From: an uncultured Pirellulales bacterium
GTDB lineage: Bacteria > Planctomycetota > Phycisphaerae > Sedimentisphaerales > Anaerobacaceae
Assembly: GCA_964537355.1 (NCBI GenBank)
Contig: CAZIAN010000001.1
Location: forward strand, 9,874-43,637
Reading direction: 5' to 3'
Length of the DNA: 33,764 nt
Under the pieces are notes generated by a model. It worked only from the letters and a program-made list of their open reading frames with translations, was not told the origin of the DNA and did no database searches. The position numbers were made by a program, and so were the translations under genes. Shown in pieces: positions 6,958 to 33,764 of the stretch. Within the stretch, counting starts at the first letter, position 1; each line of letters begins with the position of its first letter.

Positions 6958-7111
6958 ATTTGAACTTTTGGTTCAGGAGCATATCTCAAAAGGCTAAAAT
7001 AGTGTTTTCTGCTGCTTAGTAGGCATCGGGAAGAGGTAATCATTTAAGGAGCTTTTGTTAGCACTAACAAGAACGCGAAGATTTCTACAAAATAAAGTTA
7101 GAGAGGCGAAT

Positions 7112-8401: not shown

Positions 8402-8483
8402 TCGGCGAACAAGAAGGTTGATGAGATTCTTATGTTTAATCGGCCAAACGGCTAAAAGATAAAGAACAAAGGAGATTTTCAAT

Positions 8484-9824: not shown

Positions 9825-10017
9825 GGGCCGACTTGCTTGTTTTTCATCTGTGAGAGATTGACGGATTTATCGTTAGAGATTTTCTGTTTACCTGTAAGGT
9901 CTGCGCTCATTCTCAAATAAGGTTCTCAAATTGAGAATATCTCCGGATTGGCGATTGAGTACCTATATTGATTATAATTATGTTTTGAAGCTGTTTAATC
10001 TTTTTAGGATTGAATCA

Positions 10018-11501: not shown

Positions 11502-14783
<3,282 letters not shown>

Positions 14784-14969
14784 TTATCTTAAGGTGAACG
14801 TCTAAGCAAGATATTTTGTCATATTTTGAGTATAGAAATGGAGTGTGTATAAAGCGGTGGAAAAAACTTCAGAAATCAGCAGGATTTTTTTCCGGATTAG
14901 ATTCCAGGGATTTTCTTGTGAATATCTGCGAACATAACTGACATTGCTACCTTACCATATATAAACACA

Positions 14970-15440
14970 TTATTTGTTACTTCCGAGCTTGATCCACTTT
15001 CTGAGTCTGGATTTACACTGCTCTAATTTCCCATCTTCGGATGATGCCTGCCCGTATTTGAAGTTATATTGATCTATAGCCTTCCTGACAATCTTTTCGA
15101 AGTTTGTCCCTCCGAGTTTCCACGGCTTCATAATTAACTTGAAAACCTCTCCCTGATCAACTGAAATCTGAAGATCGGCGTCGTTGTCATATCCCGAGAG
15201 TACTATACCGATGGTATCCGGATGCTCTTTTCTGACGGTCCTCAGAAACTCGAGCCCGGTCATCTCAGGCATGCACATATCGGTTACAATTACATGTACC
15301 TCTTCTCGCTGGAGGATTTCGAATGCTTCCTCACAAGTCTTGGCGAAGAATTTATTGTATGATTCGTCCATAAGACCTCTTTCAAGGGACTGCAGGACTA
15401 TTACGTCGTCATCAATGAATAATACGGCTCTTTTTTCCAT
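14970..15440 (-). CDS. Single-domain response regulator (REC) with a short C-terminal extension
   Basis: GAGGAG 7 nt upstream of the ATG at 15440. VLFIDDD, phospho-acceptor context VIVTDMCMPEMTG, and SGY...KPW. Confidence 0.85.
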   Translation of the reverse strand: MEKRAVLFIDDDVIVLQSLERGLMDESYNKFFAKTCEEAFEILQREEVHVIVTDMCMPEMTGLEFLRTVRKEHPDTIGIVLSGYDNDADLQISVDQGEVFKLIMKPWKLGGTNFEKIVRKAIDQYNFKYGQASSEDGKLEQCKSRLRKWIKLGSNK

Positions 15441-15515
15441 TTTAATGCTCCTCATGTTCACTATTTACGTCTTTCTACAGATATAAGCGGTTATTACTCA
15501 AGTTCAAATAATTGC

Positions 15516-18458: not shown

Positions 18459-18503
18459 ATTCTTGTCCGAAGAAGTCTTTCTTTAATATTCCTGTTGCAT
18501 TCC

Positions 18504-20090
18504 CTATGATATTTTAGGTTTACTTACACCGGCCTTATTCTCGATATATTCTATCTCGTCTCGATATTTCTCTTCTCTGCCTAATTCTCTCAAGAGATTA
18601 TCGATCTCTTTCTTCATTTCAATCATTTGCAATTCACGCCCTACTGCCAGCTTGTTGAATTGGCTTAATTCGTTCATCTTATGGTTCAACTTTTCTTCGG
18701 TTTTTTTGTGTTCGGTAATATCTGTGGAAATTATTGTAGCGGCAATAATCTCCTGGTCATGCTTTACGGGTCCGATACGAGTCACCTGCCATGTTCTTAT
18801 GTTGGTGCCCTCAGGAGTAACAATCGTTTCAAAGCTCTGACATTGACCTGTTTGGAAGACCTGTTCGATGGTGTTTTTAATTATATCTTGATACTCCGGA
18901 GGCATGTGGTCGCAGATGTTTGTGCCTATCGTCTCTTTGGCAGTAGTACCGTGAATCGTGCGATTGATAAACAAAATCTTACCATCTCGGTCCACATTGA
19001 GGATGTAATCAGGTGCAGTCTCAAGAACAGAAAGCATTTTTTCTTTACTTTCCTGCAGGTTGTTGTACGAATTTGCGAGCTTATTTTCTATTTCCCCAAT
19101 ATAGAAATAAAAGAAGCCCAACAATAAGAAAATAACTGTAATACAGCATAGAGTTAATATTGCTGAAAATATCTTCAAGCCGGAAACTTCTTCGGTAATA
19201 TCAGCAAGAACTGCAATATCACCGACATCTCGGCCTGCGACATCTATCAGTGGAAGAAATCGCCCAAGATAATACTGATTATTCGAAGACAGCTTAATCG
19301 CAAAGGAAAGATGTTCTTTGTCATCTAATCTTGAGAGCGTCTCAAAATATTTGCTCAATGCCGACGGCAACTTGGCAAAAGTGCTGCCGGAGATAACAAA
19401 ATTGGGAAACTGATTCCATTGTGCCCCACGCCTGAGCATTTTCATTCCTTCTTCCCATTTGGCACGATCCAGATAAGACTTATTGATGAAAAGACATAGA
19501 TCTACACCTAAGGCTTCCTTCATTTCTACAGTAATATGTTCAATTTCTTCACCCAGCTCGATGTAACCGACCAGCTTGCCGTCAATTTGCCACGGATACA
19601 CAACTCGCAATGTAAATGTGCCCAATGGTCCAAGTTCGATACCATAAGCTGTTTCACCATCACGTACTGCACTTTGTATCGTGGATCTGTCTATGTAATC
19701 TCCGTGTATTGAAGGATTGTGGACTCTCAAAAAACAAACGCTGTCCAAGTCGTGAAAGTAAAAATGTGTAATCTTATGTTGTTGGCGAATTTTATCAAAA
19801 ATAGATGTGGAATATTTGAGCAATGCTTTTCTGTCCTTTGCAAGCCAGGCTTTTCGAAGGTCATTGTCTTTTTGCAAAAGACTGATATATCCTTTTAATA
19901 AATGGGCATCCTCATCCTGTTGCATTATGAACAGTTTATTTACTTCAGCAATGCGTTTTTGGGTCTGGTTATTGATTCGTCGTGTATGAAGTATATGGGC
20001 AGTAACTATAGAAACCGCTAATAAAACTCCTAATGCTGATGCCAGCGGAATCAGAATACGCCACTTAATTTTTTTTCTGACTTTGTTCAT
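18504..20090 (-). CDS. Membrane sensor protein: TM, large periplasmic Cache-like domain, TM, PAS, C-terminal coiled coil. No kinase or other output domain.
   Basis: Two hydrophobic segments flank a ~270-aa extracytoplasmic domain. A PAS-like segment follows (VLETAPDYILNVDRDGKILFINRT...), then a heptad-rich tail. No H-box or ATPase motifs. It ends 45 nt upstream of the hybrid kinase gene. Confidence 0.75.
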   Translation of the reverse strand: MNKVRKKIKWRILIPLASALGVLLAVSIVTAHILHTRRINNQTQKRIAEVNKLFIMQQDEDAHLLKGYISLLQKDNDLRKAWLAKDRKALLKYSTSIFDKIRQQHKITHFYFHDLDSVCFLRVHNPSIHGDYIDRSTIQSAVRDGETAYGIELGPLGTFTLRVVYPWQIDGKLVGYIELGEEIEHITVEMKEALGVDLCLFINKSYLDRAKWEEGMKMLRRGAQWNQFPNFVISGSTFAKLPSALSKYFETLSRLDDKEHLSFAIKLSSNNQYYLGRFLPLIDVAGRDVGDIAVLADITEEVSGLKIFSAILTLCCITVIFLLLGFFYFYIGEIENKLANSYNNLQESKEKMLSVLETAPDYILNVDRDGKILFINRTIHGTTAKETIGTNICDHMPPEYQDIIKNTIEQVFQTGQCQSFETIVTPEGTNIRTWQVTRIGPVKHDQEIIAATIISTDITEHKKTEEKLNHKMNELSQFNKLAVGRELQMIEMKKEIDNLLRELGREEKYRDEIEYIENKAGVSKPKIS

Positions 20091-20557
20091 TATTTATCAC
20101 GTTCGAACATATCCTTCATACTCGTGGGGCAGTATGTTAGGTTACGTCTTTTTCCTATAATCTTTCTGCTGTAACACCATAAGGTGTGGTAATTATTACA
20201 CCTAATATCTCAAGCTTAGAAACAGACACTGCAATCTATTTAATGTCGGTCAAAATTACATTTGAATAAACCGTGTTTTTAACTCCTCTAAGACATTATT
20301 CGGCTAACCGGCATTCTTGTATTTTTGGCAGTCCAAAAGGATTGATAATAAAATAATGAACATGACAATCGACCGATAATATATGCCAGAAAGACTGCCA
20401 CAAAACCATAGAAAATTGAAGGAAATGACTGGTAAAGTATAGTGCAGATAAAAGAAGCTTCATCTCTGGTATCTATCAGGCCAAAGACGAGCTGATGAAA
20501 TAATCAAAAAAGCCGCCATGTCCGATAAAACATCCGGATGAGCACTTCCTCATTAGG

Positions 20558-20704
20558 CTACGACTCGGAAGATATAGCATCGTTGGAACCGGTCCGGCGA
20601 GTGTCGATTTTTTTATTAAGGCTGGCAATTTCTCTGTTGAGATAAAACATATATCCAAACAGCATTACTAGGAGAACAGAAAAGGACATACATAAGTATA
20701 ACAT
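20558..20704 (-). CDS. ccmD: CcmD-like small membrane protein (48 aa; below the ORF-track length cut-off)
   Basis: Hand translation: MLYLCMSFSVLLVMLFGYMFYLNREIASLNKKIDTRRTGSNDAISSES. GGAG lies 8 nt upstream of the ATG at 20704, which is 17 nt after the ccmC stop. A single TM followed by a charged helix, in the canonical position after ccmC. Confidence 0.65.
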   Translation of the reverse strand: MLYLCMSFSVLLVMLFGYMFYLNREIASLNKKIDTRRTGSNDAISSES

Positions 20705-20721
20705 TGAACAAACTCCATCAA

Positions 20722-21369
20722 TTATTCGGCTTCAAGCCTTGATTTTATTTTCAGAACATCGTTCCTTATCCAAATCAGTATTGCAGCTAACAGCATCGTT
20801 GAGACCATGCCAATCATAAATGCCCCTTTTTGCCACGAGTTGTCGAAGGAAAAGCTTTTCTTGTGTATATCTTCCATAAAACGTGCAGTATAAAGAACCA
20901 TTGGAACGTCGAGAAATGCAATAATCGCAAAAACAGCACAAATCCTGGCTCTACGTTGTTTTGAGCCGGGTAACGAAGACCGTAGGATAAGGTAAACAAT
21001 ATAAAGAAACCAAAGAACAGCAGAGGTAATAAGTCTCGGGCTTGGAGTCCACCAAGGACCCCATTCGGCACGTGAGAAAATCATCCCGGTTGCGTTCAGA
21101 ACCGTTGCAAAAATTGTGCCGACTTCTGCGGTGGCTGATGCTACACGATCCCATGATTCATGGCCTGTGGCCAGATAACCAATTGCAGTTACGAACAACA
21201 CGGTGAAACAGGCGAGTGAACAGATTGAACTGGGCACATGGGCGTATATGATATTGCGGACGGGCGAGTCGGGATTTGCAGCAGGACCCTCTATCCGCCC
21301 TTTTGTTAAGGCCATCCAGGTTGAGCCCAATAAAAGTGTTAAAGTAATAAACATCAAAATCTTTCGCAT
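20722..21369 (-). CDS. ccmC: Heme exporter / heme-handling protein CcmC (divergent WWD motif)
   Basis: Multi-TM 215-aa protein directly after ccmB. Conserved His context IIYAHVPSS. Trp-rich loop EWGPWWTPSPRLITS. Second His in EDIHKKS. Confidence 0.8.
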   Translation of the reverse strand: MRKILMFITLTLLLGSTWMALTKGRIEGPAANPDSPVRNIIYAHVPSSICSLACFTVLFVTAIGYLATGHESWDRVASATAEVGTIFATVLNATGMIFSRAEWGPWWTPSPRLITSAVLWFLYIVYLILRSSLPGSKQRRARICAVFAIIAFLDVPMVLYTARFMEDIHKKSFSFDNSWQKGAFMIGMVSTMLLAAILIWIRNDVLKIKSRLEAE

Positions 21370-21372
21370 TTC

Positions 21373-22083
21373 TTACTCCTTAATCGCAAAGCCGAATAAA
21401 AGCCAGCATGCAACAACAAATACGGCGTCAAAGACAATCATATATCCTACTGCCGATCCGAAAGTGCCCACAAAGGCGAGTGCCCCGGTCCCTGCCATTT
21501 CCGGCGGGATTGCACCGAAAACAAGCAGAAGGGCAAAGGTGGCCGGTATCATCATTGGCATAAGTATGACAAGAACTAAAATACTGAGCAATGCCCCTCG
21601 TGCCCTGCTGAGCTGAACAATCGCCGAAAACAATGTTCCGACGCTCGATATGGCAAAATTCCCCAGTAATAATACACCAATCAAAGCAGGCCAGTTGTTG
21701 ACATTTAGTCTGAATGCGACAATAACAACCGGGATGATTATTATCTCAAAGATGCAAAGCAAAACTACATTAACAAACAGTTTTGCCAGGTAAATTGTTC
21801 CTTCGTCAACAGGAGCCAGCAGCAAGGCGTAAATACAGTCCTGCTGCTGTTCGGTTGCGAATGATCTTTCTTGTGCCAGAAGGCCGGCGAATAGAAACGC
21901 TATCCAAAGTGCGACCGGGCCGATGACAGCCTCGCTTTGCAGCACAGCCTCTGAAGCCATTCGCAGAACCCAGACTATCAACATGCCAAGGACTATCATT
22001 GTAGGCAGTACCTGTTTAGCTCGCAGCTCTGTGACAATATCTTTGATAAAAATGGCTTTTAAGCTGAGCCAGAAATATCTCAT
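21373..22083 (-). CDS. ccmB: Heme exporter permease CcmB
   Basis: 236-aa polytopic membrane protein. Its start overlaps the ccmA stop by 4 nt, and it sits between ccmA and ccmC. Confidence 0.75.
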   Translation of the reverse strand: MRYFWLSLKAIFIKDIVTELRAKQVLPTMIVLGMLIVWVLRMASEAVLQSEAVIGPVALWIAFLFAGLLAQERSFATEQQQDCIYALLLAPVDEGTIYLAKLFVNVVLLCIFEIIIIPVVIVAFRLNVNNWPALIGVLLLGNFAISSVGTLFSAIVQLSRARGALLSILVLVILMPMMIPATFALLLVFGAIPPEMAGTGALAFVGTFGSAVGYMIVFDAVFVVACWLLFGFAIKE

Positions 22084-22811
22084 GTTTCGCTCCTGGCATA
22101 GCTTATATAATCTTTCAAAAACCTTGCCGTTTCAATATTGCTTGTCTTGGCGTCAAATATCAGGTTCGACTTGTCCAAAACCACCACGCGATTGCAGCAC
22201 TTGAGGCCGATATCTATGTCATGAGTTGTCATAACAATTGTACCGCCATTATTCGTGAATTCGGTTAAAACAGTGATAAGATGATGACAGGCTTTGGCAT
22301 CCAGGCCGGTAAAAGGCTCATCCGCCAGCAATAAAGCCGGCTGATGTACCATGGCTCGTGCAATAGCTAAACGTTGAAGGAGCCCGCGGGAAAGGATGCT
22401 GGCTGTGTCATATCTATAGGAAAAAAGCCCAACATCCTGTAGTAATTCCGTTATGTAGGTGTCACTGTCTTTTACGCCGTAGAGCCTCGCAAAAAAAGAA
22501 AGATTTTCAAGAACTGTCAGTTCGGGATATACCATGCTTTTGTGAGAAATCATCCCAAATTGTGATTTAGCTTTTTCAGGGTCCTTTCGAATATTGTATC
22601 CGCAAAGCTTAACGGAGCCATTGTCAGGCTGCAAGAGGCCGGCGATGATACGAAGAAGCGTGGTTTTACCCGCCCCATTGATACCGCAAATAAGAACCGC
22701 CTGCCCCGTATCTATGTCAATAGCAATATCTCTCAACACATTCCGTGTATCAAAAGCTTTGCTGACCGATTTAACATTTATAACCATGTCATTCATATCT
22801 TGCAGCAACAC
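22080..22811 (-). CDS. ccmA: Heme exporter ABC ATPase CcmA
   Basis: Walker A GINGAGKTT, signature-like LSRGLLQR, Walker B LLLADEP, H-loop TTHD. The start is uncertain: GTG at 22811, or ATG at 22796 or 22787. Confidence 0.8.
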   Translation of the reverse strand: MLLQDMNDMVINVKSVSKAFDTRNVLRDIAIDIDTGQAVLICGINGAGKTTLLRIIAGLLQPDNGSVKLCGYNIRKDPEKAKSQFGMISHKSMVYPELTVLENLSFFARLYGVKDSDTYITELLQDVGLFSYRYDTASILSRGLLQRLAIARAMVHQPALLLADEPFTGLDAKACHHLITVLTEFTNNGGTIVMTTHDIDIGLKCCNRVVVLDKSNLIFDAKTSNIETARFLKDYISYARSET

Positions 22812-22866
22812 AGGCCTTGTTATATAAAATCATCACAAAGTGATTTAAATATTCATAAAATCCCAC

Positions 22867-23847
22867 TCAGCTTTTTTGGCTACGTAGCCGCCAAAGCACC
22901 AGCATAGCCATCATAGCAAATACCACACACAAAATAATCAAGACTCTGCTATTGGACTTTTTGACAATGAACCCGACAACCTGGAATTTTATCTGTTCAC
23001 CGGCCTTTACCGCAGGGACACTAAAATACTCGACCAAACTGCCATCAGCAGATTTCATCTCCCCCTTTGAATCGCCAAGACCTTTTACTTGCCCTTTATC
23101 CAATAACGAAAAAAACATAAATTCAGATGTAGGCAGACTTATCTTTTTTACGATGTCGATGGTTTCTGAATCAATTTCCAGACTATACGAGAATTCAGCA
23201 TCATACTGCCCGGGGGGAATAGCCATAGTATCGTAGAAACCATCTTTTGTAATAACCAGGGCGTTTTCCTGAAAATATCTCGAAAAGGTCAGATCCTTAA
23301 ATCCTACCGGAAGCATTACTTCTATAACTTTAGTTTTGTCATTTTCATCTTTTTCTACTGAAGTTATCGCCATATCCGAACTGTTATCGAGTCGCATGTA
23401 TTCTGTTATTCGAAGAGAATCAGCTTCAACCTTAATAATAAAATGGTGGACAGTGACGGACAGCTTTGATCTGTCAGTTGAAACCTCATAAACTTCAACA
23501 TGACCGTTAAAAACGGTTTGTCCCGGCTTAAGCACAACAGGGTGTCCGTTAAACATCATGTTCTGGTGTTGTACTCTTGGCAGGGCTGTTATGTTGTTGC
23601 CTGTTGGAACATTTTCAAAAACAGCCTTGCCTTGAGAATCAATGTTACCTTTTAGAGTTTGTGTCGGTTTTCCCAGCTCGAATATGGTTACCAAAACTTC
23701 ATCATTCACAGTGACGGTACCGTTGGCTGTGCTGTTTGTTACATTTATGGTGAGCGTTGTTTGTCTCTGTGTGTCAGTGGTTTGGCTTAAAAGAGGTGAC
23801 GCCGCGAACAATGACGTCAATATTGATATCATCAGGAAATGTTTCAC
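22867..23847 (-). CDS. Uncharacterised exported protein with a C-terminal TM anchor, embedded in the ccm operon
   Basis: GTG start at 23847 (alternative ATG at 23832). Signal peptide ...LFAASPLLSQ. The N-terminal segment resembles a carboxypeptidase-regulatory/Ig-like beta-sandwich (LTINVTN...GKAVFENVPTG). C-terminal anchor VLIILCVVFAMMAMLVLWRLR. No CXXC and no His-rich motif. Confidence 0.7.
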   Translation of the reverse strand: MKHFLMISILTSLFAASPLLSQTTDTQRQTTLTINVTNSTANGTVTVNDEVLVTIFELGKPTQTLKGNIDSQGKAVFENVPTGNNITALPRVQHQNMMFNGHPVVLKPGQTVFNGHVEVYEVSTDRSKLSVTVHHFIIKVEADSLRITEYMRLDNSSDMAITSVEKDENDKTKVIEVMLPVGFKDLTFSRYFQENALVITKDGFYDTMAIPPGQYDAEFSYSLEIDSETIDIVKKISLPTSEFMFFSLLDKGQVKGLGDSKGEMKSADGSLVEYFSVPAVKAGEQIKFQVVGFIVKKSNSRVLIILCVVFAMMAMLVLWRLRSQKS

Positions 23848-23854
23848 GATGTTT

Positions 23855-23953
23855 TTACCGTTCCTTTTCTTTGGTCTGGGTTTGTTTTGTAAGGAGAGGC
23901 AGAATTACAAACAGCACACATACTCCTAATAGTATCCATTTCAAATAGTCCAT
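23855..23953 (-). CDS. Candidate 32-aa single-TM micro-protein between ccmF and the 326-aa gene
   Basis: Hand translation: MDYLKWILLGVCVLFVILPLLTKQTQTKEKER. GAAGGA (overlapping the ccmF stop) lies 7 nt upstream of the ATG at 23953. The stop TAA lies 7 nt before the GTG of the next gene. Hydrophobic core plus a basic tail. Confidence 0.45.
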   Translation of the reverse strand: MDYLKWILLGVCVLFVILPLLTKQTQTKEKER

Positions 23954-23965
23954 TTTTAAGTCCTT

Positions 23966-25984
23966 CTAATTATCTTTTGCTGTTATTGCTTTTTGTTTAA
24001 ATGACGAAAACAAAACAGCTAAAGTACCCAAAACCATAACAAAACTTCCAATCCATATCCAGTTTATTAATGGCTTTATCATGATATGAAGATTTATCAG
24101 CTTCCGGCTGTTGTCAACTTCAGTAAGAGCCAGATAAAGGTCACCTGCGAGCGTTCTTCTAATATCAATCTCGCTGACGTTTTTCTTGCTTGCGCTGTAA
24201 AACGCCTTGGCCGGTTTTAATTGAGCAATCAATTTCTCGCCCTTGTGGACTGAAATATCTGCTGCCAGGGCGGTAAAGTTTCGGCCTTGTTCGACATTGA
24301 GGTCATTGAAGGTCAACTCGTATCCGGCTATATTGGTTTTATCGCCGATTCTCATTGCGGCTGTCTTATCCATATCATAGCCGCCGGAACCTGCAATGCC
24401 GATAAACATAACTGCAACACCCAGATGGACAATCCTTGCGCCATACCATCTAAGATTTCGAGGTGATTTTTTCGCTTTATAACCGACAAAATCAGCCAGA
24501 AGATTCACCAGCACAAAACCGCTTAAAATAAAACATGGTATTGCGGGTGACCCGCTTAAAAGCCATCGTCCCCACCATCCGATGGCTTCGGATATACCAC
24601 TCGGACGTGCTGAGTCCAGTGAACACGTAAACAACCAGACTGTCACCACTGCGGCAAGCGCGATAACTCCCAAAATGATACGCCAGCTTTTATTAAGGCC
24701 ATTTCTAATAAGATGCGGGCAAAGGCCAATGAGCAAAAGCAAAAACAACCCGCCGGGAGCTGTAATCTTTGTAAAGAATTCTGGGGCAAGGGTGACGGGG
24801 GCTCGCGAGGTCCCGGCTTGTGTAGATAGGCTCTCAATAATTTTTATAAACACCTTGCTTAAGAACGGAAATAGTGTTCCTACGAATATCACCAGGGCCA
24901 GCAGCAGCAACAGCCAGTTGTTAAGAATTACAAATCGGTGGCTGGGTATCCCGGCGTTCGGCGGTTCCTTTTTTTTGCGCATATAATTACGCAAAATGAG
25001 TACCCCTGCTATTACCCACACTTGTATCAGCAATACGACGTGCAAAATACCAAGACCGGGATTCGGAAACGCATGGACACTGGAAACAAGTCCATATTTT
25101 GTAAGAAATCTGCCGAAAACACATAAACTGAACGTAAGGATACTAAGCAGCACTGTCCATGTTGCAATTGAAGAACGCCGGTTGTACATTCTGAAACAAT
25201 GGAGTAATGCGGTCGCTGTAAGCCAGGGTATCAGTGAGGAATTTTCTACAGGATCCCACGCCCAATAACCTCCCCAGCCAAGCTCTTCATACGCCCACCA
25301 GGCGCCTAATACAATGCCGGCTGTCAAAAACAACCAGGCAAACATTGCCCACCTCTGGGCCTGTTTAAGAAGTGGCAGAGCGTTTTCTTCGTCAGCCGTT
25401 TTTAGCCGGCCAAAGGCCCATGCAAAAGTTATCATAAAACCCGCATAGCCGACAAAAAGAATCGGGGGATGCAAAACCATCGCAGGGTGCTGCAATAAAG
25501 GATTAAGACCTGCACCGTCGGCTGGTGAAGCAGTCGTATATAATTCAAAGGGATTTTTGTCTTTGTTCAAAATAATAAGAAAAAAAACACTGACCAGATT
25601 GGCTATCATACGGGCATTTGCAGAAAAACTTCTGTGTTTAAATTCAGATTTGCAATATACTATAACCAGAAATACGGCCTGGAACCATAACCACAGCAGT
25701 AACGAACCGGCAGAGCCCGCCCATAACGCGCTTATTTTGTATGGAAAAGGCAGCGCCCTGGAAGTATGCTCAGCGACATAAATTACGGCGAAGTCACTCT
25801 TGACCAACAGTATCCACAGAGCAATCATAGCCACACTTAGACAAGCCATGTATGCAACAGTCGCATTGCGAGCACTTTTGATCAAACCCGTGTCTTGGCG
25901 AAATGAACCTAACAGGTCAATTACAACCGCATAGCCGCTTAAAAAAAGCGCAAGTAAGAGAGCGAAATTTCCAAGTCCTGCCAT
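23966..25984 (-). CDS. ccmF: Cytochrome c heme lyase subunit CcmF
   Basis: 672-aa polytopic protein with the canonical WWD motif WGGYWAWDPVENSSLIPWL. It starts 4 nt after the ccmE stop. Confidence 0.9.
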   Translation of the reverse strand: MAGLGNFALLLALFLSGYAVVIDLLGSFRQDTGLIKSARNATVAYMACLSVAMIALWILLVKSDFAVIYVAEHTSRALPFPYKISALWAGSAGSLLLWLWFQAVFLVIVYCKSEFKHRSFSANARMIANLVSVFFLIILNKDKNPFELYTTASPADGAGLNPLLQHPAMVLHPPILFVGYAGFMITFAWAFGRLKTADEENALPLLKQAQRWAMFAWLFLTAGIVLGAWWAYEELGWGGYWAWDPVENSSLIPWLTATALLHCFRMYNRRSSIATWTVLLSILTFSLCVFGRFLTKYGLVSSVHAFPNPGLGILHVVLLIQVWVIAGVLILRNYMRKKKEPPNAGIPSHRFVILNNWLLLLLALVIFVGTLFPFLSKVFIKIIESLSTQAGTSRAPVTLAPEFFTKITAPGGLFLLLLIGLCPHLIRNGLNKSWRIILGVIALAAVVTVWLFTCSLDSARPSGISEAIGWWGRWLLSGSPAIPCFILSGFVLVNLLADFVGYKAKKSPRNLRWYGARIVHLGVAVMFIGIAGSGGYDMDKTAAMRIGDKTNIAGYELTFNDLNVEQGRNFTALAADISVHKGEKLIAQLKPAKAFYSASKKNVSEIDIRRTLAGDLYLALTEVDNSRKLINLHIMIKPLINWIWIGSFVMVLGTLAVLFSSFKQKAITAKDN

Positions 25985-25988
25985 ATTT

Positions 25989-26387
25989 TTACTCCACTTT
26001 TGCCTTGTATTTTGATTCGCATTTTGTCATGAGGGTCTTGGCCTTAAAGGATTTGTTTTCGTCCAGCCTGCCTTCAACTACCACTTCAATGTCATCGGTA
26101 AAATTGTCCGGAACAGTTCCTTCATAAATTACTGGAATCTCTGTTTTGGTTCCGGCCAGAGTAAAGGTCAGGTTCATTTTCTGTAAATCACGATTCACGC
26201 TTCCAGGCTTGACTCTGCCGGCGATTCTGAATGAATAGTTATTCATATCAGAAATGTTGGCTGAGAATTCATCCACGGAATAATAATACGACCACGATGA
26301 CTGCATTGCCTGGAATGTGAAATAACCCAGGCCGCCCCCGATGACAGTTACACCTATCAGAATTTTCAAAATCATTTTTGTTTTCAT
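25989..26387 (-). CDS. ccmE: Heme chaperone CcmE, Cys variant (CxxxY instead of HxxxY)
   Basis: 132 aa. N-terminal membrane anchor ILKILIGVTVIGGGLGYF. OB-fold-sized body (FRIAGRVKPGSV...VVVEGRL). C-terminal TKCESKY, with Cys123 at 26019..26021 (TGC) and Tyr127 at 26007..26009 (TAC). Confidence 0.85.
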   Translation of the reverse strand: MKTKMILKILIGVTVIGGGLGYFTFQAMQSSWSYYYSVDEFSANISDMNNYSFRIAGRVKPGSVNRDLQKMNLTFTLAGTKTEIPVIYEGTVPDNFTDDIEVVVEGRLDENKSFKAKTLMTKCESKYKAKVE

Positions 26388-26607
26388 TGGTTCACCTATA
26401 CTATTAATTTTTCAAACTATTTGTACTAAATTATGTAGCAAATCAACCTGAGATTTATATTCCATTATTATATTTTTGAGAAATGGGTTCAATATTGGTT
26501 CGGTGAAATGTTTTCATTATGAAAGGTCAGATTATATCGACCACTAAATACCCCCGGAATTATAAATTGCAGGCGTCTAGTCAGCAAAGTCTAATATAAG
26601 CCCATTA

Positions 26608-27660
26608 TCACCTGAGGTCATTAATATTCAACTCCTTGTCAAAGACCAGTGTCAATGCCCGGTAATAAGTAAGCATCGCTTTTTCCACTTCTCCCCGAGC
26701 CTGATAAATCTGGCCTAATTCATAAAACGCCCTGCCGGACTTTGGATTCAGCTTTGTTGCTTCAAGAAGTAGCTTTTCTGCTTCTTCAAAATTACTCATT
26801 TGTCGATTTGCCCAGCCGGTTATGAGCAGCAACTTTGACTTCTCGATATATCCTCTGGTCTGAACTCCATCAAGTATTTCCAAAGCGGATTTACCCTGGC
26901 CTATAGAACATAAAAGGTTGCCGATTTCCAGAGCCAGTTCGACAGAATTAGGATCGAGTTCCCTGGCTTGTTTCATTTGGGTGATAGCTGATTCAATTTG
27001 TCCCCTCCCCTGCAGCATCTTTGCCATTTGAAGGTGTCTTTTAACTCGTGCTGCAACTGTAGCGTTAGTTACGGTTTTTACCTGACCTGCATTATTAGGA
27101 TCTATCTCCTGAGCTATCCCCAGTGCCTGATTCAATCGAGCATGTATTACTGGTTCGAAATTGTACCCGTGACCTGCTTCCACCCAAAGTACTTTGTCCT
27201 TATCATCTGAAATTATCACGGTTGGTGTTGCGATTATGCCAAATTTCCCCCATAACTTGTATTCTTTGTCCTTAACTACGTGAACAAAAGAGAAAAGTTC
27301 ATTTGGGTCTGATTCGTTGGGAAATGACTTAAAAAATGTTTGACTGTTGGGGTCATCGATGACGATTACAACACTCAGGCTGTCTTGCTGACCAGTCAAG
27401 TTGCAAATAATTTTTTCTAATTCTTTTGTAGCTCGTGTTGAATTTTTATGTTTGGCGGATAAGAAAGCCACCATCAGCACTTTTTTGTTACCATGTTTAT
27501 AATCGAAGAGTTTACCAGAGACGTCTAATGCTGAAAACTCCGGCATTTTGTTGCCAATGTCGATTCTGCGTCCGGCACAGTTTGCTTTATGACCCTGCAG
27601 AAACGAACAGATCATAACAATATAAATAACATAAAAGGTTGTTTTACGATTCATTATCAT
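26608..27660 (-). CDS. Exported thioredoxin-fold (TlpA/CcmG-like) domain lacking the CXXC motif, fused to TPR repeats (CcmI-like)
   Basis: N-terminal hydrophobic signal/anchor. Redoxin-like GNKMPEFSALDVSGK...KKVLMVAFLSAKHKNS...GIIATPTVIISDDKDKV, with AKHKNS where WCxxC is expected. The C-terminal ~150 aa carries TPR-like repeats (A..YYRAL, G..AFYELGQIY). Confidence 0.7.
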   Translation of the reverse strand: MIMNRKTTFYVIYIVMICSFLQGHKANCAGRRIDIGNKMPEFSALDVSGKLFDYKHGNKKVLMVAFLSAKHKNSTRATKELEKIICNLTGQQDSLSVVIVIDDPNSQTFFKSFPNESDPNELFSFVHVVKDKEYKLWGKFGIIATPTVIISDDKDKVLWVEAGHGYNFEPVIHARLNQALGIAQEIDPNNAGQVKTVTNATVAARVKRHLQMAKMLQGRGQIESAITQMKQARELDPNSVELALEIGNLLCSIGQGKSALEILDGVQTRGYIEKSKLLLITGWANRQMSNFEEAEKLLLEATKLNPKSGRAFYELGQIYQARGEVEKAMLTYYRALTLVFDKELNINDLR

Positions 27661-27718
27661 TATATTTATATCAGCTTTCTATATATCTGAACTCGGTTTT
27701 TAAGCTCCACTGTCTACG

Positions 27719-29056
27719 CTACGGGGCGGAATAATCCACGGCTTTTTCTCTATCATAATCCTTCGGTAAATGACAACCGGGTGCGCAACGGCCTCCAGTT
27801 TCTGTCTTTGAGAAGCCAACCGGCAGCTCCCACATTCCGTATGGCACACTCTTGCGAATATGTTTTGGAAGGTCGCTCGCGTGTGTCTGATGGCAGGCTC
27901 GGCACGTCCTTCCACGACGTTCCTTGTTAACGTGTAAAAAGTGCAGGTTAGTACTTCCGTTTCTAAAGTCTGTGAGAGTATTTGTTTCCGGCGTCCATAC
28001 AAGGTCCTTCGAGTGACAACCGAAACAAAGCTCATAATTCTGTTCCGAAAACGGAGCGTAAAATATCGGTGGATATTCTTTCGCCAGGAGTCTGAAATAT
28101 TTGCTACCGTGGGTGACATGACATCCACTGCAATCACCGTCTTTGACGGGGCCGTGAAGATATTTCTTATCTTTGATCTGGTCTGTGAAAGCAGGCAGAA
28201 CTTCATCTTTGGTTATTTGCTGTGGTTTATCATGACAGGTCATGCAAATCGTTTTCGGATCGCTTTTCAGCAGGAATTTGACTGACGAGGCATGTGGAGT
28301 ATGACATTTCAGACAACCGTCTATATCAGAGACAACGCTATGCTGGTACATGGAGTTTTCAGCAACATTCTGTATATCCTTATGACAAGTGTAACAAAGA
28401 TAGGGTGCGAAATCTTTAACCATCTTTGGATTACTGGCGCCATGAGGATTATGGCAGCCGATGCAGTCGTTCTTTGCCGGCTCGTGAACAAACTCATATT
28501 TTTTTAACTCGTCTTGTGTTACAACATGGCAGGAAAAACAAAGCTCGGAGGGTTCGGCAACCAGTAAACTTTTATGGTCTGAACTGTGAGAATTGTGACA
28601 GATTGTACATTCACCGACCGCTGTTGGCCCATGTAGATATTGAAATCCTTCGGTAATTTTATGGCAGTTGCTGCACAGAGCAGCGACGTTTTTTTCCAGA
28701 AGCAGGGATTTATTATCACTACTGTGAGGGTCATGGCATTGAATACAGTCACCCGTCTTAAGGGGCTCATGAACGACCTCTTTGCTTGTTTGTTCCAAAT
28801 GACAGTATTCGCATAGGTCTTTGCCCTGACGCACAAACTCATAGGTATGTTCTTCCGGTTTCAATGGTTTGTGGCACGCTTTACAGTCACCAAGTCCCAC
28901 CGGTCCGTGTACGAAAGCTTTTGTGCCGTAGTCGGCATGACATTCTCCTGTAACGCATGTTTTTTGTGGCGTAGTTGGTTTTTCCACTGCAAGTACGTTG
29001 GAAACCAAAATAAAACTCAGCACAACAACTAATTTCTTACCATATTTGCTAAACAT
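27719..29056 (-). CDS. Periplasmic multiheme cytochrome c (13 CXXCH + CX4CH + CX3CH; c7/c3-type repeats)
   Basis: The ATG at 29056 follows GGAAGGTGGG. Signal peptide MFSKYGKKLVVVLSFILVSNVLA. 13 CXXCH motifs counted by hand, six of them as CxxCHxxH. In addition CVTGECH (28937..28957) and CAPGCH (27770..27787). Confidence 0.9.
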   Translation of the reverse strand: MFSKYGKKLVVVLSFILVSNVLAVEKPTTPQKTCVTGECHADYGTKAFVHGPVGLGDCKACHKPLKPEEHTYEFVRQGKDLCEYCHLEQTSKEVVHEPLKTGDCIQCHDPHSSDNKSLLLEKNVAALCSNCHKITEGFQYLHGPTAVGECTICHNSHSSDHKSLLVAEPSELCFSCHVVTQDELKKYEFVHEPAKNDCIGCHNPHGASNPKMVKDFAPYLCYTCHKDIQNVAENSMYQHSVVSDIDGCLKCHTPHASSVKFLLKSDPKTICMTCHDKPQQITKDEVLPAFTDQIKDKKYLHGPVKDGDCSGCHVTHGSKYFRLLAKEYPPIFYAPFSEQNYELCFGCHSKDLVWTPETNTLTDFRNGSTNLHFLHVNKERRGRTCRACHQTHASDLPKHIRKSVPYGMWELPVGFSKTETGGRCAPGCHLPKDYDREKAVDYSAP

Positions 29057-29205
29057 TGTCCCACCTTCCATTCTTTTTTATAAATTCAAGTTGAAGTGGC
29101 ATCGTTACGCCACACATCAGTACCGAATACCGTACAAAAAAGCTTCCAAAATAGTATCTGCTGTTTTTCATATATTTTCCGTTTTCCGACTCTTAACAAT
29201 TTATC

Positions 29206-30381
29206 TTAATTCGCTGCTTTGGAACTCGAAGCTTGTCGCCTGTAAAGAAGGACCATTGTCCCGGAAGCGGAGCTATGGTGCTTTGGTTTGTTAAGTTCCA
29301 AAACTAACTGTTTCCTGGTTTCACTTTCCTCAATACTCGCAATAATAGCAGGAGAGAGCAACTCTTCTGAACCTTTCTTCCAGTCATTTTTAATATTCGC
29401 ACTGTTGGAAAAATCCTCGATGCTGAAAGTGTATGTTTTCTGAGCAAAAGGATATTCATTTTTTAGTTTGGCTTTTTCGGCATGTTTTTTGCCGTCCTTG
29501 GAATAAAACAACCATGGTTCGGAGCCTTGTGCGGTCACAAAAACATAATTTCCCTGTGTGGTTCCTATATCAAAATCAGTAAACTGAACACGAAGCGGAA
29601 GATCCTTTTTCATATGTGGAGATGACGGGAACTTCGACCAAAGCCACTGTTCATAATTATCATTGCCGTTATCAAGATTAATCTTAATCGCAGGATTGAC
29701 AGGTTTATTTGACATATTGGTCACTTTTTTTGTTGTGGTATCGATCGAATAATGCGGCAAATATTCCAGAATCTTCAGTTTATAATCGCTTATGGGTAAG
29801 GTTATCGTATCTCCTGCATTAGCGACATATTCAAGTGGCTTATTTGTGTCATTGCCCCAGACCGATACAATGCCGATTGACTTGCCGGAGGTTAGTTCTC
29901 GCATGATCTTTTCGATTCCTTCGGAACTGTGGAGTTTAACGATTTTAATACCTCCGATTTGTGATGATATCGACTGTTTGGCTGGATCTGCTGAACTCAG
30001 CCAGATATCCTGATTGAGGTTTTCGCCCTTTGCCTTTATTTGTACTACTGCCCCCCCTTTAGGATCTTCTACTATGGAAGTCTCCCACTTTAGATCTGGT
30101 AAATACTGCATGAGTCTGATTTTAATTGGTGAGCCCATTAACGGTAGAGCCTTATCAAGCATGGTTGTCTTGTTCTCGTTGGGGACTTTTACCGGGAACC
30201 GCATCATAGACCCGTCCATACCATTTTGAACCACTATTTCCCATGGCCCGCTTAACATTGCCTGCCGCATTTCTGGGGAATAACCGTAAGCTCGGCTCGA
30301 AAATACTGAGAGGCCTGCGATCACAAGGATAACAATATTGATAACACTTGCATGTGCTCTTAATTTAATAATACTTTTCAT
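29206..30381 (-). CDS. Uncharacterised cysteine-free exported or membrane-anchored protein between the two cytochrome genes
   Basis: The ATG at 30381 lies 8 nt after the stop of the upstream cytochrome gene. N-terminal hydrophobic segment INIVILVIAGLSVFSS. Beta-rich. A recurring motif appears four times: IKIRLMQYLPDL, YKLKILEYLPHY, LRVQFTDFDIGT, YTFSIEDFSNSA. No Cys residues. Confidence 0.7.
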   Translation of the reverse strand: MKSIIKLRAHASVINIVILVIAGLSVFSSRAYGYSPEMRQAMLSGPWEIVVQNGMDGSMMRFPVKVPNENKTTMLDKALPLMGSPIKIRLMQYLPDLKWETSIVEDPKGGAVVQIKAKGENLNQDIWLSSADPAKQSISSQIGGIKIVKLHSSEGIEKIMRELTSGKSIGIVSVWGNDTNKPLEYVANAGDTITLPISDYKLKILEYLPHYSIDTTTKKVTNMSNKPVNPAIKINLDNGNDNYEQWLWSKFPSSPHMKKDLPLRVQFTDFDIGTTQGNYVFVTAQGSEPWLFYSKDGKKHAEKAKLKNEYPFAQKTYTFSIEDFSNSANIKNDWKKGSEELLSPAIIASIEESETRKQLVLELNKPKHHSSASGTMVLLYRRQASSSKAAN

Positions 30382-30389
30382 AATCGGTC

Positions 30390-31793
30390 TTATTGCACCT
30401 CACTAATTATTTCATTCGCTTTAAGCAGTATTGCTTCGGTATATTTAAAATTGTGAACACCCCAACTGCCGTCAGCTTCTACCGAATCAATAAGTTCTTT
30501 TGCCTGTGTTATCTTCTCTGTTGATTCTTTGGCTTTCTTTTCATTAGTCTCGTAATCTAAGCTTTTAAGTACTTTTTCCAGCCTGTTGTTGACTTGTTCG
30601 TGTAATTTTTTGATACTCCCCTGCCAAAATGAAATATATTGATTGCCGGTTCCAGGTTCATGGCATTTATCACAGGCTCGAGGTACTGCTTTGGCGACTT
30701 TTCCAAAGCTGTCTAATGCTCCAGGTTTTTTTTGGGCCTTTTCGATGTGACATCCGGTACATTCCACGTGCGTAAGAAACATGGGGCTGAGAACTCGATC
30801 TGTCTGCGTGTCTTGCATTGGATGTTGGGTTGCGTAAATGGTGCGCTGGACCTGGTGGGTGTCGCTGTGACAGCTCTGGCAATCCAGCATGTCTGAAATC
30901 GATGTTACCTCTTTCTTACCGTGTAATATTTTTCCATGGCATTCAAAGCACTCAACTTTATGGCCATTAGTATGGGCTTTATGCAGTTCTACACTGTCAT
31001 ATTGATGTTCTTTAGCCTCAGTTGCCAGCTTGTCGGCCAAAAGAATCTTCTCGGCATCGGTGTAGTTATGACAGTTCAAGCATACACTGTCATCTATTTT
31101 GCTCGTCTTCTGTATTTCCTTCTTGTGGCAGGAATCTTCACAGCTTGCATTATAAGAAACAAACTCAGAATGGTTAATTGAAACTAGTCCTCTCTGAATA
31201 ACTTTATTTGGCACTTCATGGCAGCTCTTACAACTTGTCTGGACAAGCTGCTCGCCGGCCTCGGTGTTCCTGAGGAAATGGCATGTGAAACATGCGTCAT
31301 TGTTGACGCTGAAATGCTCGTTACCCTCAAAGTGGCTGTGACAAGTACCACAGGTGATATTTATTCCATCGACCTCTTTTTTCATATGATTCTTATGAGT
31401 GAATTTAACACCGTTGAAGTCGATGTCCTTTGTCAGCAGCTCTTCCGTGCTGTGACATTCCGACCTCAGACAGGATTCGTCTAAAATGGTGGCGCTTGGT
31501 TTCGTACCCACCCTGCCGACAATGCAATCGATCGCTTGTGACAGGCCGTTTATCTTGCCCTTGACGTGACCCATCAATCCGGGCTGGAGATGACACTCAA
31601 GACAATTCACTTCGCTGTGGGTCGACGTCTTCCAGTTGTCATAATAGTTATTCATTATATGACAGGAATTGCAAAATCCCGGCTGCTCGGATACAACGAT
31701 GGCACCTGAGGCAGCAACCATAACTACCGCAGCTAATAATAATATTTTCACTTTCCAGTTTAGCTGTTTAATTTTGCTTATTAATGACTTCAT
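30390..31793 (-). CDS. Membrane-anchored NapC/NirT/NrfH-type multiheme cytochrome c with a C-terminal extension (10 CXXCH + CX4CH + CX3CH); putative quinol dehydrogenase
   Basis: N-terminal TM helix followed by FCNSCHIMNNYYDNWKTSTHSEVNCLECH, the NapC/NrfH signature spacing. 10 CXXCH motifs counted. In addition CLRSECH (31452..31472) and CEDSCH (31125..31142). Confidence 0.85.
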   Translation of the reverse strand: MKSLISKIKQLNWKVKILLLAAVVMVAASGAIVVSEQPGFCNSCHIMNNYYDNWKTSTHSEVNCLECHLQPGLMGHVKGKINGLSQAIDCIVGRVGTKPSATILDESCLRSECHSTEELLTKDIDFNGVKFTHKNHMKKEVDGINITCGTCHSHFEGNEHFSVNNDACFTCHFLRNTEAGEQLVQTSCKSCHEVPNKVIQRGLVSINHSEFVSYNASCEDSCHKKEIQKTSKIDDSVCLNCHNYTDAEKILLADKLATEAKEHQYDSVELHKAHTNGHKVECFECHGKILHGKKEVTSISDMLDCQSCHSDTHQVQRTIYATQHPMQDTQTDRVLSPMFLTHVECTGCHIEKAQKKPGALDSFGKVAKAVPRACDKCHEPGTGNQYISFWQGSIKKLHEQVNNRLEKVLKSLDYETNEKKAKESTEKITQAKELIDSVEADGSWGVHNFKYTEAILLKANEIISEVQ

Positions 31794-31855
31794 TCTTAAG
31801 TATTTCGCCTTAATCTTTGTTGTTCATAAAAAGTTTTTGAGCAAATCGGTCTTTT

Positions 31856-33205
31856 TTACGTAGCTTGGGATTGCCAAGGACCTTTCGGTAATGTAATCCA
31901 AAACTTGGTTCCGGTATCCTCTATACTGTCAATCCATATTTTCCCGCCGTGTCTTTCCACTATATATTTTGCTATCGATAGCCCCAGGCCGGTACCGTCT
32001 TTTTGAAATTTTCGGGCGTTACTTGCTCTGAAAAACTCGTCAAATACATCGTCAAGCTCATCTGCAGGTATCCCGATTCCTGTATCTGCGATTTCGATGA
32101 CTACACAATCCTTTCCGTTTTTTGCACCTATTGTGACCGTACCTTTTTCCGGTGTATATCTTATTGCATTAAGCAGTAAGTTTGTGAACACTTCTTCGAT
32201 GGAAAATTGGTTGCCGGAGATTGTATCTACTGACGAATCAACGTTACAATTTAGTGTTATCGATTTATCTTCAGCCTTTGTTCTGACAGCCGCAACTGCG
32301 TTATGTACGGTATCTCTCAAGGGGAAAACATCTATTTCCAGTTTGTCGCTCAGTCGCATTTGTGTCAGCTTCAACAGTGTCTTCACAAAGTGGGTAAGTT
32401 TGATGGTTCGCATGTGTGCACGGCCGATAAACTCCGCCGGCTTATCGTCAAGTGGCCCGACAACTTTATTTACTACCATACCCAGGCAACTCTGTATAGT
32501 TGCCAGATGCGATTTGATATCATGAGTGACACGTAGAACGTATTCGTCCTTTATTTGGTCTTTTTTCTGGAGTAATGTGTTTGCCTGTATGTAGGCTCGC
32601 TCGGTCCGCTTGAGTCTCATGGAAATGTAGCTGGCCATATATACGGCTAAATATAGCGCAGTTGCGAAAACAAAAAAAGTGCCGAGAATGTAAAGTTTGT
32701 TTCTATGCAAACAATTTGGTGCGAATCCTTTCAGGCAATAGTGTGGTATAAGCTGTAGATATTCGAGCAGGACAAGCAGGCCGAAGACTAAAACGGCAAA
32801 CGTAGCCTGGAGATAGCTGTCCCATAAAGAAAGTAAGATGCTTGCTATGATCATATGAAATATAAAGTAAAAAACAAATGGGTTTTCGATCCCGCCTGAA
32901 AAATGCAGCAGGACGGTTAGAATAAGCAGATCAGCGGATATCTGAACGTTAATTATTTTCTTTACTGCTACATGCGGTATTTCATTTCCTTTTTTTTCAA
33001 AATGGTTTAATAGCAGCAACACTGTCAGATTGTACATAACAAGAAGTATTGCGATACTGTAGAGAGCGGCATCATGTAGTTCTATATCCAAAAGGTTACT
33101 GGAAACATAGGTTGCCGCGCAGACAAATACAATAGCTATCCACCTTAGCCTGATCAACCAGTAAGCTCTCTGGAGAAGTCTGATATTTTCAGATACCGGT
33201 TCCAT
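31856..33205 (-). CDS. Sensor histidine kinase with a polytopic membrane-embedded N-terminal sensor region
   Basis: About 6 hydrophobic helices with short loops. H-box VTHDIKSHLATI. HATPase motifs LLLNAIRYT, DTGIGIP and GTGLGLSIAKYIVERHGGKIW. The start is taken at ATG 33205 (ORF maximum 33253), overlapping the REC gene end by 17 nt. Confidence 0.85.
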   Translation of the reverse strand: MEPVSENIRLLQRAYWLIRLRWIAIVFVCAATYVSSNLLDIELHDAALYSIAILLVMYNLTVLLLLNHFEKKGNEIPHVAVKKIINVQISADLLILTVLLHFSGGIENPFVFYFIFHMIIASILLSLWDSYLQATFAVLVFGLLVLLEYLQLIPHYCLKGFAPNCLHRNKLYILGTFFVFATALYLAVYMASYISMRLKRTERAYIQANTLLQKKDQIKDEYVLRVTHDIKSHLATIQSCLGMVVNKVVGPLDDKPAEFIGRAHMRTIKLTHFVKTLLKLTQMRLSDKLEIDVFPLRDTVHNAVAAVRTKAEDKSITLNCNVDSSVDTISGNQFSIEEVFTNLLLNAIRYTPEKGTVTIGAKNGKDCVVIEIADTGIGIPADELDDVFDEFFRASNARKFQKDGTGLGLSIAKYIVERHGGKIWIDSIEDTGTKFWITLPKGPWQSQAT

Positions 33206-33605
33206 TTTCAACCTTGTTTGACAGAAGTTTTTTGACCTCGGACAGCAGAACATCAGGTTCTACCGGCTTGTCCAGGAACACATCAACCGGCAGCCAGGTT
33301 GGATCTCCGGCGGTGGATTTGAAACTTATGCCGGTTCTGTTTTCAACTGCTGTCAGCATCAGGACAGGCATATTTTTGAGCTGGGGGTCTTTCTTCAATT
33401 GTCTGGACATTTCAAAGCCATCCTGCCAGGCATGCATCATAACATCCAGTATGGCTAAATCCGGTTTTTCAGCTCTGATTTTTTCCATACCTTCTATTTT
33501 GTCGCCGGCCGTGACCACGGTATATTGCTCACTCTCCAAAATAGCCCTGATTACCTTGATATAATCCGGGTCATCATCCACAATCATAATCTTTGCATTT
33601 GCCAT
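33189..33605 (-). CDS. Single-domain response regulator (REC)
   Basis: KIMIVDDDPD, phospho-acceptor context LAILDVMM, LTA and DKP. 138 aa with no output domain. Confidence 0.85.
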   Translation of the reverse strand: MANAKIMIVDDDPDYIKVIRAILESEQYTVVTAGDKIEGMEKIRAEKPDLAILDVMMHAWQDGFEMSRQLKKDPQLKNMPVLMLTAVENRTGISFKSTAGDPTWLPVDVFLDKPVEPDVLLSEVKKLLSNKVENGTGI

Positions 33606-33764
33606 AATTAATCTCGCAAAAAAAAAACGCCTTGGGATTATTGTAGCCTTTCTTGTTACTTCCTATGCTTTTATAAATCTTTTTCAGGTTTATTTGCCTT
33701 CGGTTTCAAATTATCATTAAAATTCGTCATAGAAGATATCGTCCGGGCTAATGCCTTTTTCCTT

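Follow-up and report, generated by a model that had tools for sequence, protein, structure and literature searches.

A conserved gene trio of the Phycisphaerae as a candidate inner-membrane and periplasmic section of an extracellular electron transfer cluster

To what acceptor would a bacterium pass electrons when it encodes two large multiheme cytochromes side by side and no recognizable terminal reductase? The question is raised by a stretch of 33,764 nucleotides, here called the window, from an uncultured Pirellulales bacterium that GTDB places in the Sedimentisphaerales (assembly GCA_964537355.1, contig CAZIAN010000001.1, positions 9,874 to 43,637). Between a two-component system and a cytochrome c maturation (ccm) operon lie three co-oriented minus-strand genes: cytA (30390..31793), for a membrane-anchored 12-heme cytochrome of 467 amino acids; mid (29206..30381), for a secreted or membrane-anchored all-beta protein of 391 amino acids; and cytB (27719..29071), for a periplasmic 15-heme cytochrome resembling MtrA and DmsE, 450 amino acids long from its first ATG. 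An initial annotation, made from the letters of the window, had described this trio as a respiratory module, and its gene boundaries, motif counts and flanks agree with the open reading frames (ORFs), motif counts and flank annotation obtained here, as does its remark that no CXXCK protein, molybdopterin or Fe-S reductase is encoded in the window. We assign a probability of roughly 0.6 to the reading that the three genes encode the part of a Phycisphaerae-wide cluster that sits in the inner membrane and periplasm, the cluster as a whole having the parts list of a porin-cytochrome system for extracellular electron transfer (EET) and leading toward the cell surface.

Distribution and gene order of the trio

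Homology searches gave 375 mid relatives, 536 cytA relatives and more than 5000 cytB matches. The top named matches of all three proteins came from Planctomycetota, Phycisphaerae or Sedimentisphaerales metagenome-assembled genomes (MAGs), the named cytA relatives all belong to the Planctomycetota, and the nearest relative, at 91% identity, is from a marine-type "Planctomycetes bacterium" MAG. A Planctomycetes-Verrucomicrobia-Chlamydiae (PVC)-like origin had been guessed from the sequence, and the lineage is indeed Planctomycetota, class Phycisphaerae. Gene neighborhoods were compared across 121 loci under a single annotation script; all of the loci are attributable to the Planctomycetota/Phycisphaerae, and 86 make up a near family. 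Gene order was counted over the loci assessable at each position. Immediately upstream of mid, 56/59 near-family loci carry cytA, and immediately downstream 47/49 carry cytB. The second gene downstream encodes a Trx-like/TPR protein in 41/43 loci; in the window this module accessory, here called Trx-TPR, has a Trx-fold domain lacking CxxC and TPR repeats (26608..27660, minus strand; Pfam TPR families, E ~1e-12). A PilS-like kinase stands within three genes upstream of mid in 22/34 loci, in many of them with a receiver gene as well, and an Nqr operon stands further upstream in 16/34. The trio had been described as a module, and the recurrence of cytA and cytB beside mid shows decisively that it is syntenic in other genomes; no orthology of the cytochromes to Nrf, Otr or Hao was found.

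Further downstream, 21 of 30 near-family loci continue into a block that encodes, in order, a 4-heme cytochrome, an NHL propeller, a 5-heme MtrA-like cytochrome, a protein of ~680 amino acids, a second NHL propeller and a large cytochrome; an NHL propeller was found downstream in 22 of the 30. In the ~680-amino-acid protein a lipobox Cys is nearly invariant and the C-terminal Phe fully so, and a test for amphipathic beta strands gave z ~3 in four of six sequences and ~0 in the other two, a weak signal. From these features it may be a lipoprotein that forms an outer-membrane porin or barrel. The initial annotation had found no outer-membrane porin nearby, which holds for the window lineage and does not hold for the relatives with this candidate block.

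A HMMER search of 1.8 billion representatives also returned a second group of proteins, ~400 amino acids long and 20 to 27% identical to mid, and beyond it proteins of 520 to 630 amino acids. A genome scan with nine sequences of the second group, the 28-sequence distant alignment (A4) being too divergent, placed the group in Phycisphaerales and other Phycisphaerae MAGs. There the gene order is kinase, sigma54 regulator, mid, cytB (15 motifs), cyt4, NHL, cyt5, a ~690-amino-acid protein and NHL. This distant family has no cytA in the cluster, which leaves mid and cytB as the constant core. Exceptions to their pairing are rare; in one, L065 (9001-10158), a mid homolog of 49% identity is split into pieces of 327 and 82 amino acids with no cytB after it, and genes nearby encode a 7-heme cytochrome, an NHL protein and an 11-heme cytochrome of 1606 amino acids.

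Within the window, cytA and mid are separated by 8 nucleotides, with GAGGTG lying inside the 3' end of cytA, and mid and cytB by 134 nucleotides to the first ATG of cytB or 149 to the second. The second ATG has the better ribosome-binding site (AAGGTGG), and the true start of cytB is probably this ATG, at 29056. In a distant-family locus, L018, mid and cytB overlap by 4 nucleotides. A scan for sigma-70-like promoters found sites no more often than expected from shuffled sequence, and a terminator scan found none on the minus strand within the trio.

The two multiheme cytochromes

CytA carries ten CxxCH motifs together with CLRSECH (Cx4CH) and CEDSCH (Cx3CH), which makes 12, and this 10+2 count is kept in 56/57 orthologs. 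CytB carries 13 CxxCH motifs, CVTGECH (Cx4CH) and CAPGCH (Cx3CH), which makes 15, and the 13+2 count is kept in 59/61. The motif counts of both proteins are conserved and not a matter of chance. At the N terminus of CytA, a hydrophobic stretch at residues 14-35, ahead of C41, and a helix at 13-30 in the AlphaFold2 (AF2) model mark a single membrane anchor. The protein matches Pfam Cytochrom_NNT (PF03264) at 34.6 bits, over the cutoff of 24.1, and the NrfH equivalog TIGR03153 at 57.3 bits, under the cutoff of 134.2. Its first heme motif, CNSCHIM at 41-47, is of the NrfH type CxxCHxM, with M47 nearly invariant among 43 sequences, and the family profile finds NrfH of D. vulgaris in the PDB (2j7a_C, E 1e-10). 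The initial annotation's membrane-anchored NapC/NrfH-type cytochrome, extended to 12 hemes, is thus supported by Pfam, TIGR03153 and the PDB profile matches. NrfH proper is a tetraheme protein of ~150 amino acids with NrfA as partner, whereas CytA has 12 motifs in 467 amino acids, and no NrfA gene is present in the window.

The remainder of CytA has different relatives. Its profile matches OcwA (6i5b, E 1e-9) over 213 residues that comprise the last five motifs and the C terminus and that align with OcwA hemes 5-9 and the three-helix bundle; MccA (E 4e-8), octaheme nitrite reductase (ONR) and NrfA also match. The C terminus aligns to OcwA 371-494 and MccA 614-695, and in the AF2 model it forms a three-helix bundle (382-412, 418-441 and 449-466) with a predicted local distance difference test (pLDDT) score above 80. 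The tail also carries DGSWGVHN, the counterpart of DGSxGxHN in the OcwA/NrfA family. In OcwA, hemes 5-9 make up an NrfA-like core, and the three-helix bundle is a hallmark of the NrfA family (PMC6703420). By homology, then, CytA is predicted to be an NrfH-type head joined through extra hemes to an OcwA/NrfA-like five-heme tail. It shares its CxxCHxM first heme with NrfH, and the C-terminal five hemes, bundle and DGSxGxHN with NrfA and OcwA/MccA/ONR, and it differs from the NrfH-NrfA pair in having the two modules on a single chain, separated by further hemes, and in lacking CXXCK. In two loci cytA is split, into ORFs of 118 and 325-351 amino acids in L002 (8651-9989), whose sister contig L003 is intact, and into ORFs of 144 and 320 amino acids in L086; these splits could reflect frameshifts, pseudogenes or assembly errors.

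Because the tail is related to the OcwA/NrfA/MccA family, it may contain a catalytic heme. CytA could then itself be a terminal reductase, an NrfH fused to an NrfA/OcwA pentaheme and acting on soluble nitrite, hydroxylamine, sulfite, tetrathionate or polysulfide, with CytB as an electron buffer or branch. In addition to the structural matches above, CLNCH (C238) aligns with the CLKCH that opens the aligned stretch of OcwA, and if CLKCH is OcwA heme 5, as motif order suggests, C238 would mark an open-coordination active-site heme. OcwA reduces nitrite and hydroxylamine (PMC6703420), and the window encodes no porin. We nonetheless consider a reductase unlikely. CytA has no CXXCK and no match to the NrfA Pfam family, and 12 conserved non-motif His, enough for bis-His ligation of all 12 hemes, stand beside its 12 motifs. 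The gene is always in an operon with the 15-heme wire and mostly also with the outer-membrane-type block, and the distant family has the rest of the cluster with no cytA at all.

CytB is a predicted periplasmic carrier. Pfam recognizes six Paired_CXXCH_1 units (E 3e-68), the DmsE model TIGR03508 matches at 140.5 bits, under its cutoff of 192.2, a GSU2203 decaheme model matches below cutoff, and the best PDB match is MtrA of the MtrCAB complex (6r2q_A, E 2e-14). Across 41 sequences from the near and distant families, exactly 15 non-motif His are invariant beside the 15 motif His. CytB thus looks like a pure electron wire, with a conserved candidate distal His for each heme. The initial annotation had already proposed a periplasmic multiheme wire, which stands; its c7/c3-like architecture does not, and a c7/c3 polymer of the GSU1996 kind was rejected in favor of an MtrA/DmsE-like protein on the Pfam, NCBIfam and PDB matches. 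No MtrB-type outer-membrane barrel lies beside cytB in the window, although the ~680-amino-acid barrel candidate is encoded downstream in 21 of 30 relatives.

The ResB-related middle protein and cytochrome maturation

The protein between the cytochromes has no Cys and no heme motif; its orthologs carry zero to four Cys, and absence of Cys thus does not characterize the family. At the sequence level Mid has no match in Pfam, NCBIfam or the PDB. Its AF2 model (pLDDT 78) shows an N-terminal hydrophobic helix, the only one in the protein, followed by ~25 beta strands, and a Foldseek search of the PDB returned nothing at E <= 0.001, the top match being a weak one to CcsBA (7s9y; E 0.018, TM-score 0.15). 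In contrast to these searches, phmmer against 1.8e9 representative sequences matched Mid to full-length PF05140 ResB proteins (e.g., P0370, E 3.5e-10), in which Pfam detects PF05140 with E values as low as 7e-52. An hhalign comparison of Mid with a ResB alignment gave 99.8% probability (E 2e-30, 289 columns), with Mid residues 85-385 aligned to ResB 193-497, and an LPH[YF]...NPA signature is common to Mid and the long ResB proteins. Alignment to two solved CcsBA structures shows that the homologous ResB region is an insertion between two conserved strands of the beta cap, which gates the heme-attachment site (PMC10663686). The insertion is missing from the CcsBA of B. thetaiotaomicron and replaced by a different insert in that of H. 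hepaticus. Judged by homology, Mid corresponds to the insertion domain that long ResB/CcsB proteins carry in the periplasm, here standing alone although the domain is otherwise known only from within ResB, and the initial description of it as a protein with no known motifs is superseded. A role as an outer-membrane porin was rejected: the AF2 model is not a barrel, Foldseek found no outer-membrane protein, and the homology is to a periplasmic ResB domain.

Mid resembles ResB/CcsB (Ccs1) of the System II synthase in this periplasmic region only. It has no PF05140 match, no counterpart of TM2-4 or of the C-terminal transmembrane (TM) helix, no beta-cap strands and no CcsA/ResC partner, and the conserved T-H of the ResB membrane segment (invariant H101 in ResB alignment A3) has no equivalent. 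Lacking the ResB membrane helices and the conserved TM His, Mid is therefore not a ResB. Its neighbors are cytA and cytB, and the synthase encoded nearby is CcmF of System I rather than CcsA. The closest full-length ResB relatives, by contrast, adjoin genes for CcsA and NHL-multiheme proteins. On contig L122 the order is NHLb (69% identical to the NHLb of the cluster), terminal cytochrome (62%), ResB and an incomplete CcsA-like gene, so Phycisphaerales-type clusters can end in a System II synthase of their own. The distant Mid proteins of the Phycisphaerales (L008-L042, alignment A5) have two conserved features, a His/Met-rich GHGxHPPMP directly following the A-x-A-Q that closes the N-terminal hydrophobic segment, and a GGHP at the C terminus. 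The family of the window has neither, and in the distant family they may bind metal or heme.

What would such a domain do between two cytochromes? With no redox cofactor motif, Mid would be a partner dedicated to CytB. We see about an even chance that it is a periplasmic holdase or escort that helps the 15-site apocytochrome through heme attachment and folding, and a permanent scaffold subunit is a somewhat less probable but serious possibility. It is doubtful that Mid clamps the 15-heme CytB to the 12-heme CytA as a structural subunit, in a hard-wired 27-heme conduit spanning the periplasm, perhaps with an OcwA-like open-coordination heme in the CytA tail. If it did, the CytA-Mid-CytB complex would be a conduit of an undescribed kind and, with an open heme, could be both wire and enzyme. 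Trx-TPR would be a second accessory like Mid, acting in the assembly or stabilization of CytB. It matches Thioredoxin_8, Redoxin and AhpC below cutoffs and has FLSAKHKNS where WCxxC is expected, and 39/45 orthologs have no CxxC at all; on its residues it is a redox-dead Trx domain kept beside the 15-heme cytochrome.

Cytochrome maturation genes recur beside the cluster, and in the window they form a variant System I ccm operon on the minus strand (20558..26387), identified from translations, Pfam CcmE and the Pfam matches of its orthologs in L004 and L005. It comprises ccmE of the CxxxY type (25989-26387), ccmF (23966-25984), a gene for a conserved 326-amino-acid protein (22867-23847), ccmA (22080-22811), ccmB (21373-22083), ccmC (20722-21369) and a ccmD-like ORF of 48 codons (20558-20704). 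CcmE ends in LMTKCESKY, with CxxxY in place of HxxxY; CxxxY-type variants of System I are found in Desulfovibrio and archaea. The operon contains no CcmH and no CcmG with CxxC. The 326-amino-acid protein has a signal peptide and a C-terminal TM helix and no Pfam or NCBIfam match; it occupies the same position in every relative with an adjacent ccm operon (L004, L005, L043, L046, L047, L099 and L111), and it may be a missing System I component. The operon had been called dedicated to the module. It is more probably the general machinery of the cell, linked here, because the gene set is complete and most assessable loci do not have it beside the module (7/30 do).

The presence of these genes suggests another explanation, a cytochrome assembly island in which Mid and Trx-TPR are pure maturation factors and CytA and CytB abundant clients next to the ccm genes of the cell. 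Mid is derived from ResB, Trx-TPR resembles accessories of the CcmG/CcmI type, ccm adjoins the module in the window, and a ResB-CcsA pair ends one Phycisphaerales-type cluster. The association with ccm is loose, however, while cytA, mid, cytB and the Trx-TPR gene stay together; the module has two-component or sigma54 regulators of its own; Mid lacks the TM His and helices needed for handling heme; and Trx-TPR lacks CxxC. We regard an assembly island as very improbable.

A candidate route toward the cell surface

Returning to an EET cluster as the preferred reading, a path for electrons can be proposed. Nqr would oxidize NADH and reduce menaquinone, and CytA, held in the cytoplasmic membrane by its one N-terminal helix, would oxidize menaquinol at the first heme, whose homology to that of NrfH is clear. 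Electrons would then pass along the 12 hemes of CytA into its OcwA/NrfA-like five-heme tail and on to soluble CytB, which would carry them across the periplasm. In most relatives, the downstream block would take them over the outer membrane to an acceptor outside the cell, for example minerals of Fe(III) or Mn(IV), humics or a syntrophic partner. In the window lineage, either the outer-membrane block would be encoded elsewhere or electrons would go to a periplasmic or soluble acceptor. The Nqr operon upstream in many loci fits a branch from NADH through quinone to CytA and CytB, by which an anaerobic polysaccharide degrader would dispose of electrons.

The same chain could in principle run inward, with Fe(II), a cathode-like mineral or a syntrophic partner as the electron source and CytB and CytA as the path to the quinone pool. 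The MtrA homologs MtoA and PioA work in the oxidative direction, and NHL-propeller/cytochrome clusters of a similar type occur in Desulfovibrio ferrophilus and in the syntrophic partners of anaerobic methanotrophic archaea (ANME). An operon for an NADH:quinone oxidoreductase immediately upstream in 16/34 loci argues for the opposite direction, as does the sugar catabolism encoded in the rest of the window, which fits a heterotroph in need of an electron sink. Markers of oxidative EET are also rare in Phycisphaerae, found in 3/139 operational taxonomic units (bioRxiv 10.1101/2022.03.26.485925). We judge inward flow to be quite unlikely.

Several points weigh against the proposed route to the surface. 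In the window lineage the outer-membrane-type block is absent beside the module, and the ccm operon stands in its place. The ~680-amino-acid protein has no Pfam, NCBIfam or PDB match, and the case for a porin consists of the lipobox Cys, the C-terminal Phe and the weak amphipathic-beta signal. The AF2 model of whole CytA is unusable (pLDDT 45), and because structure modeling failed, heme ligation in CytA is drawn from His counts only; in OcwA, sufficient His do not ensure that all hemes are bis-His (PMC6703420). In the literature the periplasmic insertion is noted in a subset of CcsB proteins, with its role given as unknown (PMC13645880), and the choice between chaperone and scaffold for Mid is accordingly a matter of inference.

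Among the closest known counterparts is the MtrCAB/DmsEF system of Shewanella with CymA. Both have a quinol dehydrogenase of the NapC/NirT family and an MtrA/DmsE-like periplasmic multiheme wire, and in the relatives of the window a ~680-amino-acid outer-membrane candidate and further cytochromes are likewise in one operon. The differences are considerable: CymA has 4 hemes and CytA 12, MtrA/DmsE have 10 and CytB 15, MtrB shows no detectable similarity to the ~680-amino-acid porin candidate, and the Mtr system has no counterpart to the NHL propellers or the ResB-derived Mid. The D. ferrophilus cluster DFE_0448-0465 and those of the sulfate-reducing partners of ANME similarly combine small MtrA-like cytochromes, six-bladed NHL propellers and large cytochromes, but no ResB-derived protein and no 15-heme partner have been described for them. 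Their role is itself unproven: D. ferrophilus still reduced Fe(III) after deletion of cytochromes. Matches to the FeGenie 'DFE variant' and to CbcL have been reported in Phycisphaerae MAGs (bioRxiv 10.1101/2022.03.26.485925), and "porin-scaffold-cytochrome" clusters of a similar kind were recently proposed for Acidobacteriota and Verrucomicrobiota. Our literature searches found no description of the present cluster, and none of a ResB insertion domain standing alone or of a 12-heme fusion of the NrfH/OcwA-like type. The cluster is best described as parts of known kind in an uncharacterized combination, and not as categorically new.

Upstream of the trio, on the minus strand, are a membrane histidine kinase with a PilS-like 6-TM sensor (31856..33253; Pfam HATPase_c, E 7e-30; 6TM_PilS, E 6e-8) and a stand-alone receiver-domain response regulator of 138 amino acids (33189..33605; Response_reg, E 1e-19). 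The true start of the kinase is probably at ~33205, which gives 449 amino acids, the same length as in relatives, and many near-family loci have the same order of receiver gene, kinase gene and cytA. The closest relatives, the 91% loci L004, L005 and L043 from independent assemblies, all end no more than ~600 bp upstream of the receiver gene, the contig break in L004 falling within nqrF; these ends suggest a repeat or a strain-variable junction. The window, too, ends 159 nucleotides past the receiver gene. Downstream of ccmC, also on the minus strand, are two sensors, a dCache_3-PAS protein without a kinase domain (18504-20090), found at the same position in L004 and L005, and a hybrid dCache-HisKA-HATPase-REC-Hpt kinase (15516-18458). 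The GC content shifts from ~0.47-0.52 in positions 1-14800 to ~0.39-0.45 in 14800-33764. The high-GC half is devoted to sugar metabolism, with a LacZ-type GH2 protein, two GFO/IDH/MocA oxidoreductases, a xylose-isomerase-like TIM barrel and a BNR protein, and the low-GC half to sensors, ccm and cytochromes. Sweeps of the whole window for tRNA genes and Rfam families were empty.

The Phycisphaerae are polysaccharide degraders, abundant in anoxic sediments and for the most part uncultured, and their electron disposal is poorly understood. If the proposed route is correct, the class would have a separately regulated respiratory outlet to minerals, humics or partner cells, one that links Nqr, a quinol-oxidizing 12-heme cytochrome, a 15-heme wire and, mostly, outer-membrane-type components. 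A stand-alone Mid offers a handle on the role of the variable periplasmic insertion in CcsB/ResB, and it also bears on how very large multiheme proteins stay competent for sequential heme attachment. An outlet of this kind would change how the role of Phycisphaerae in the carbon and iron cycling of sediments is modeled.

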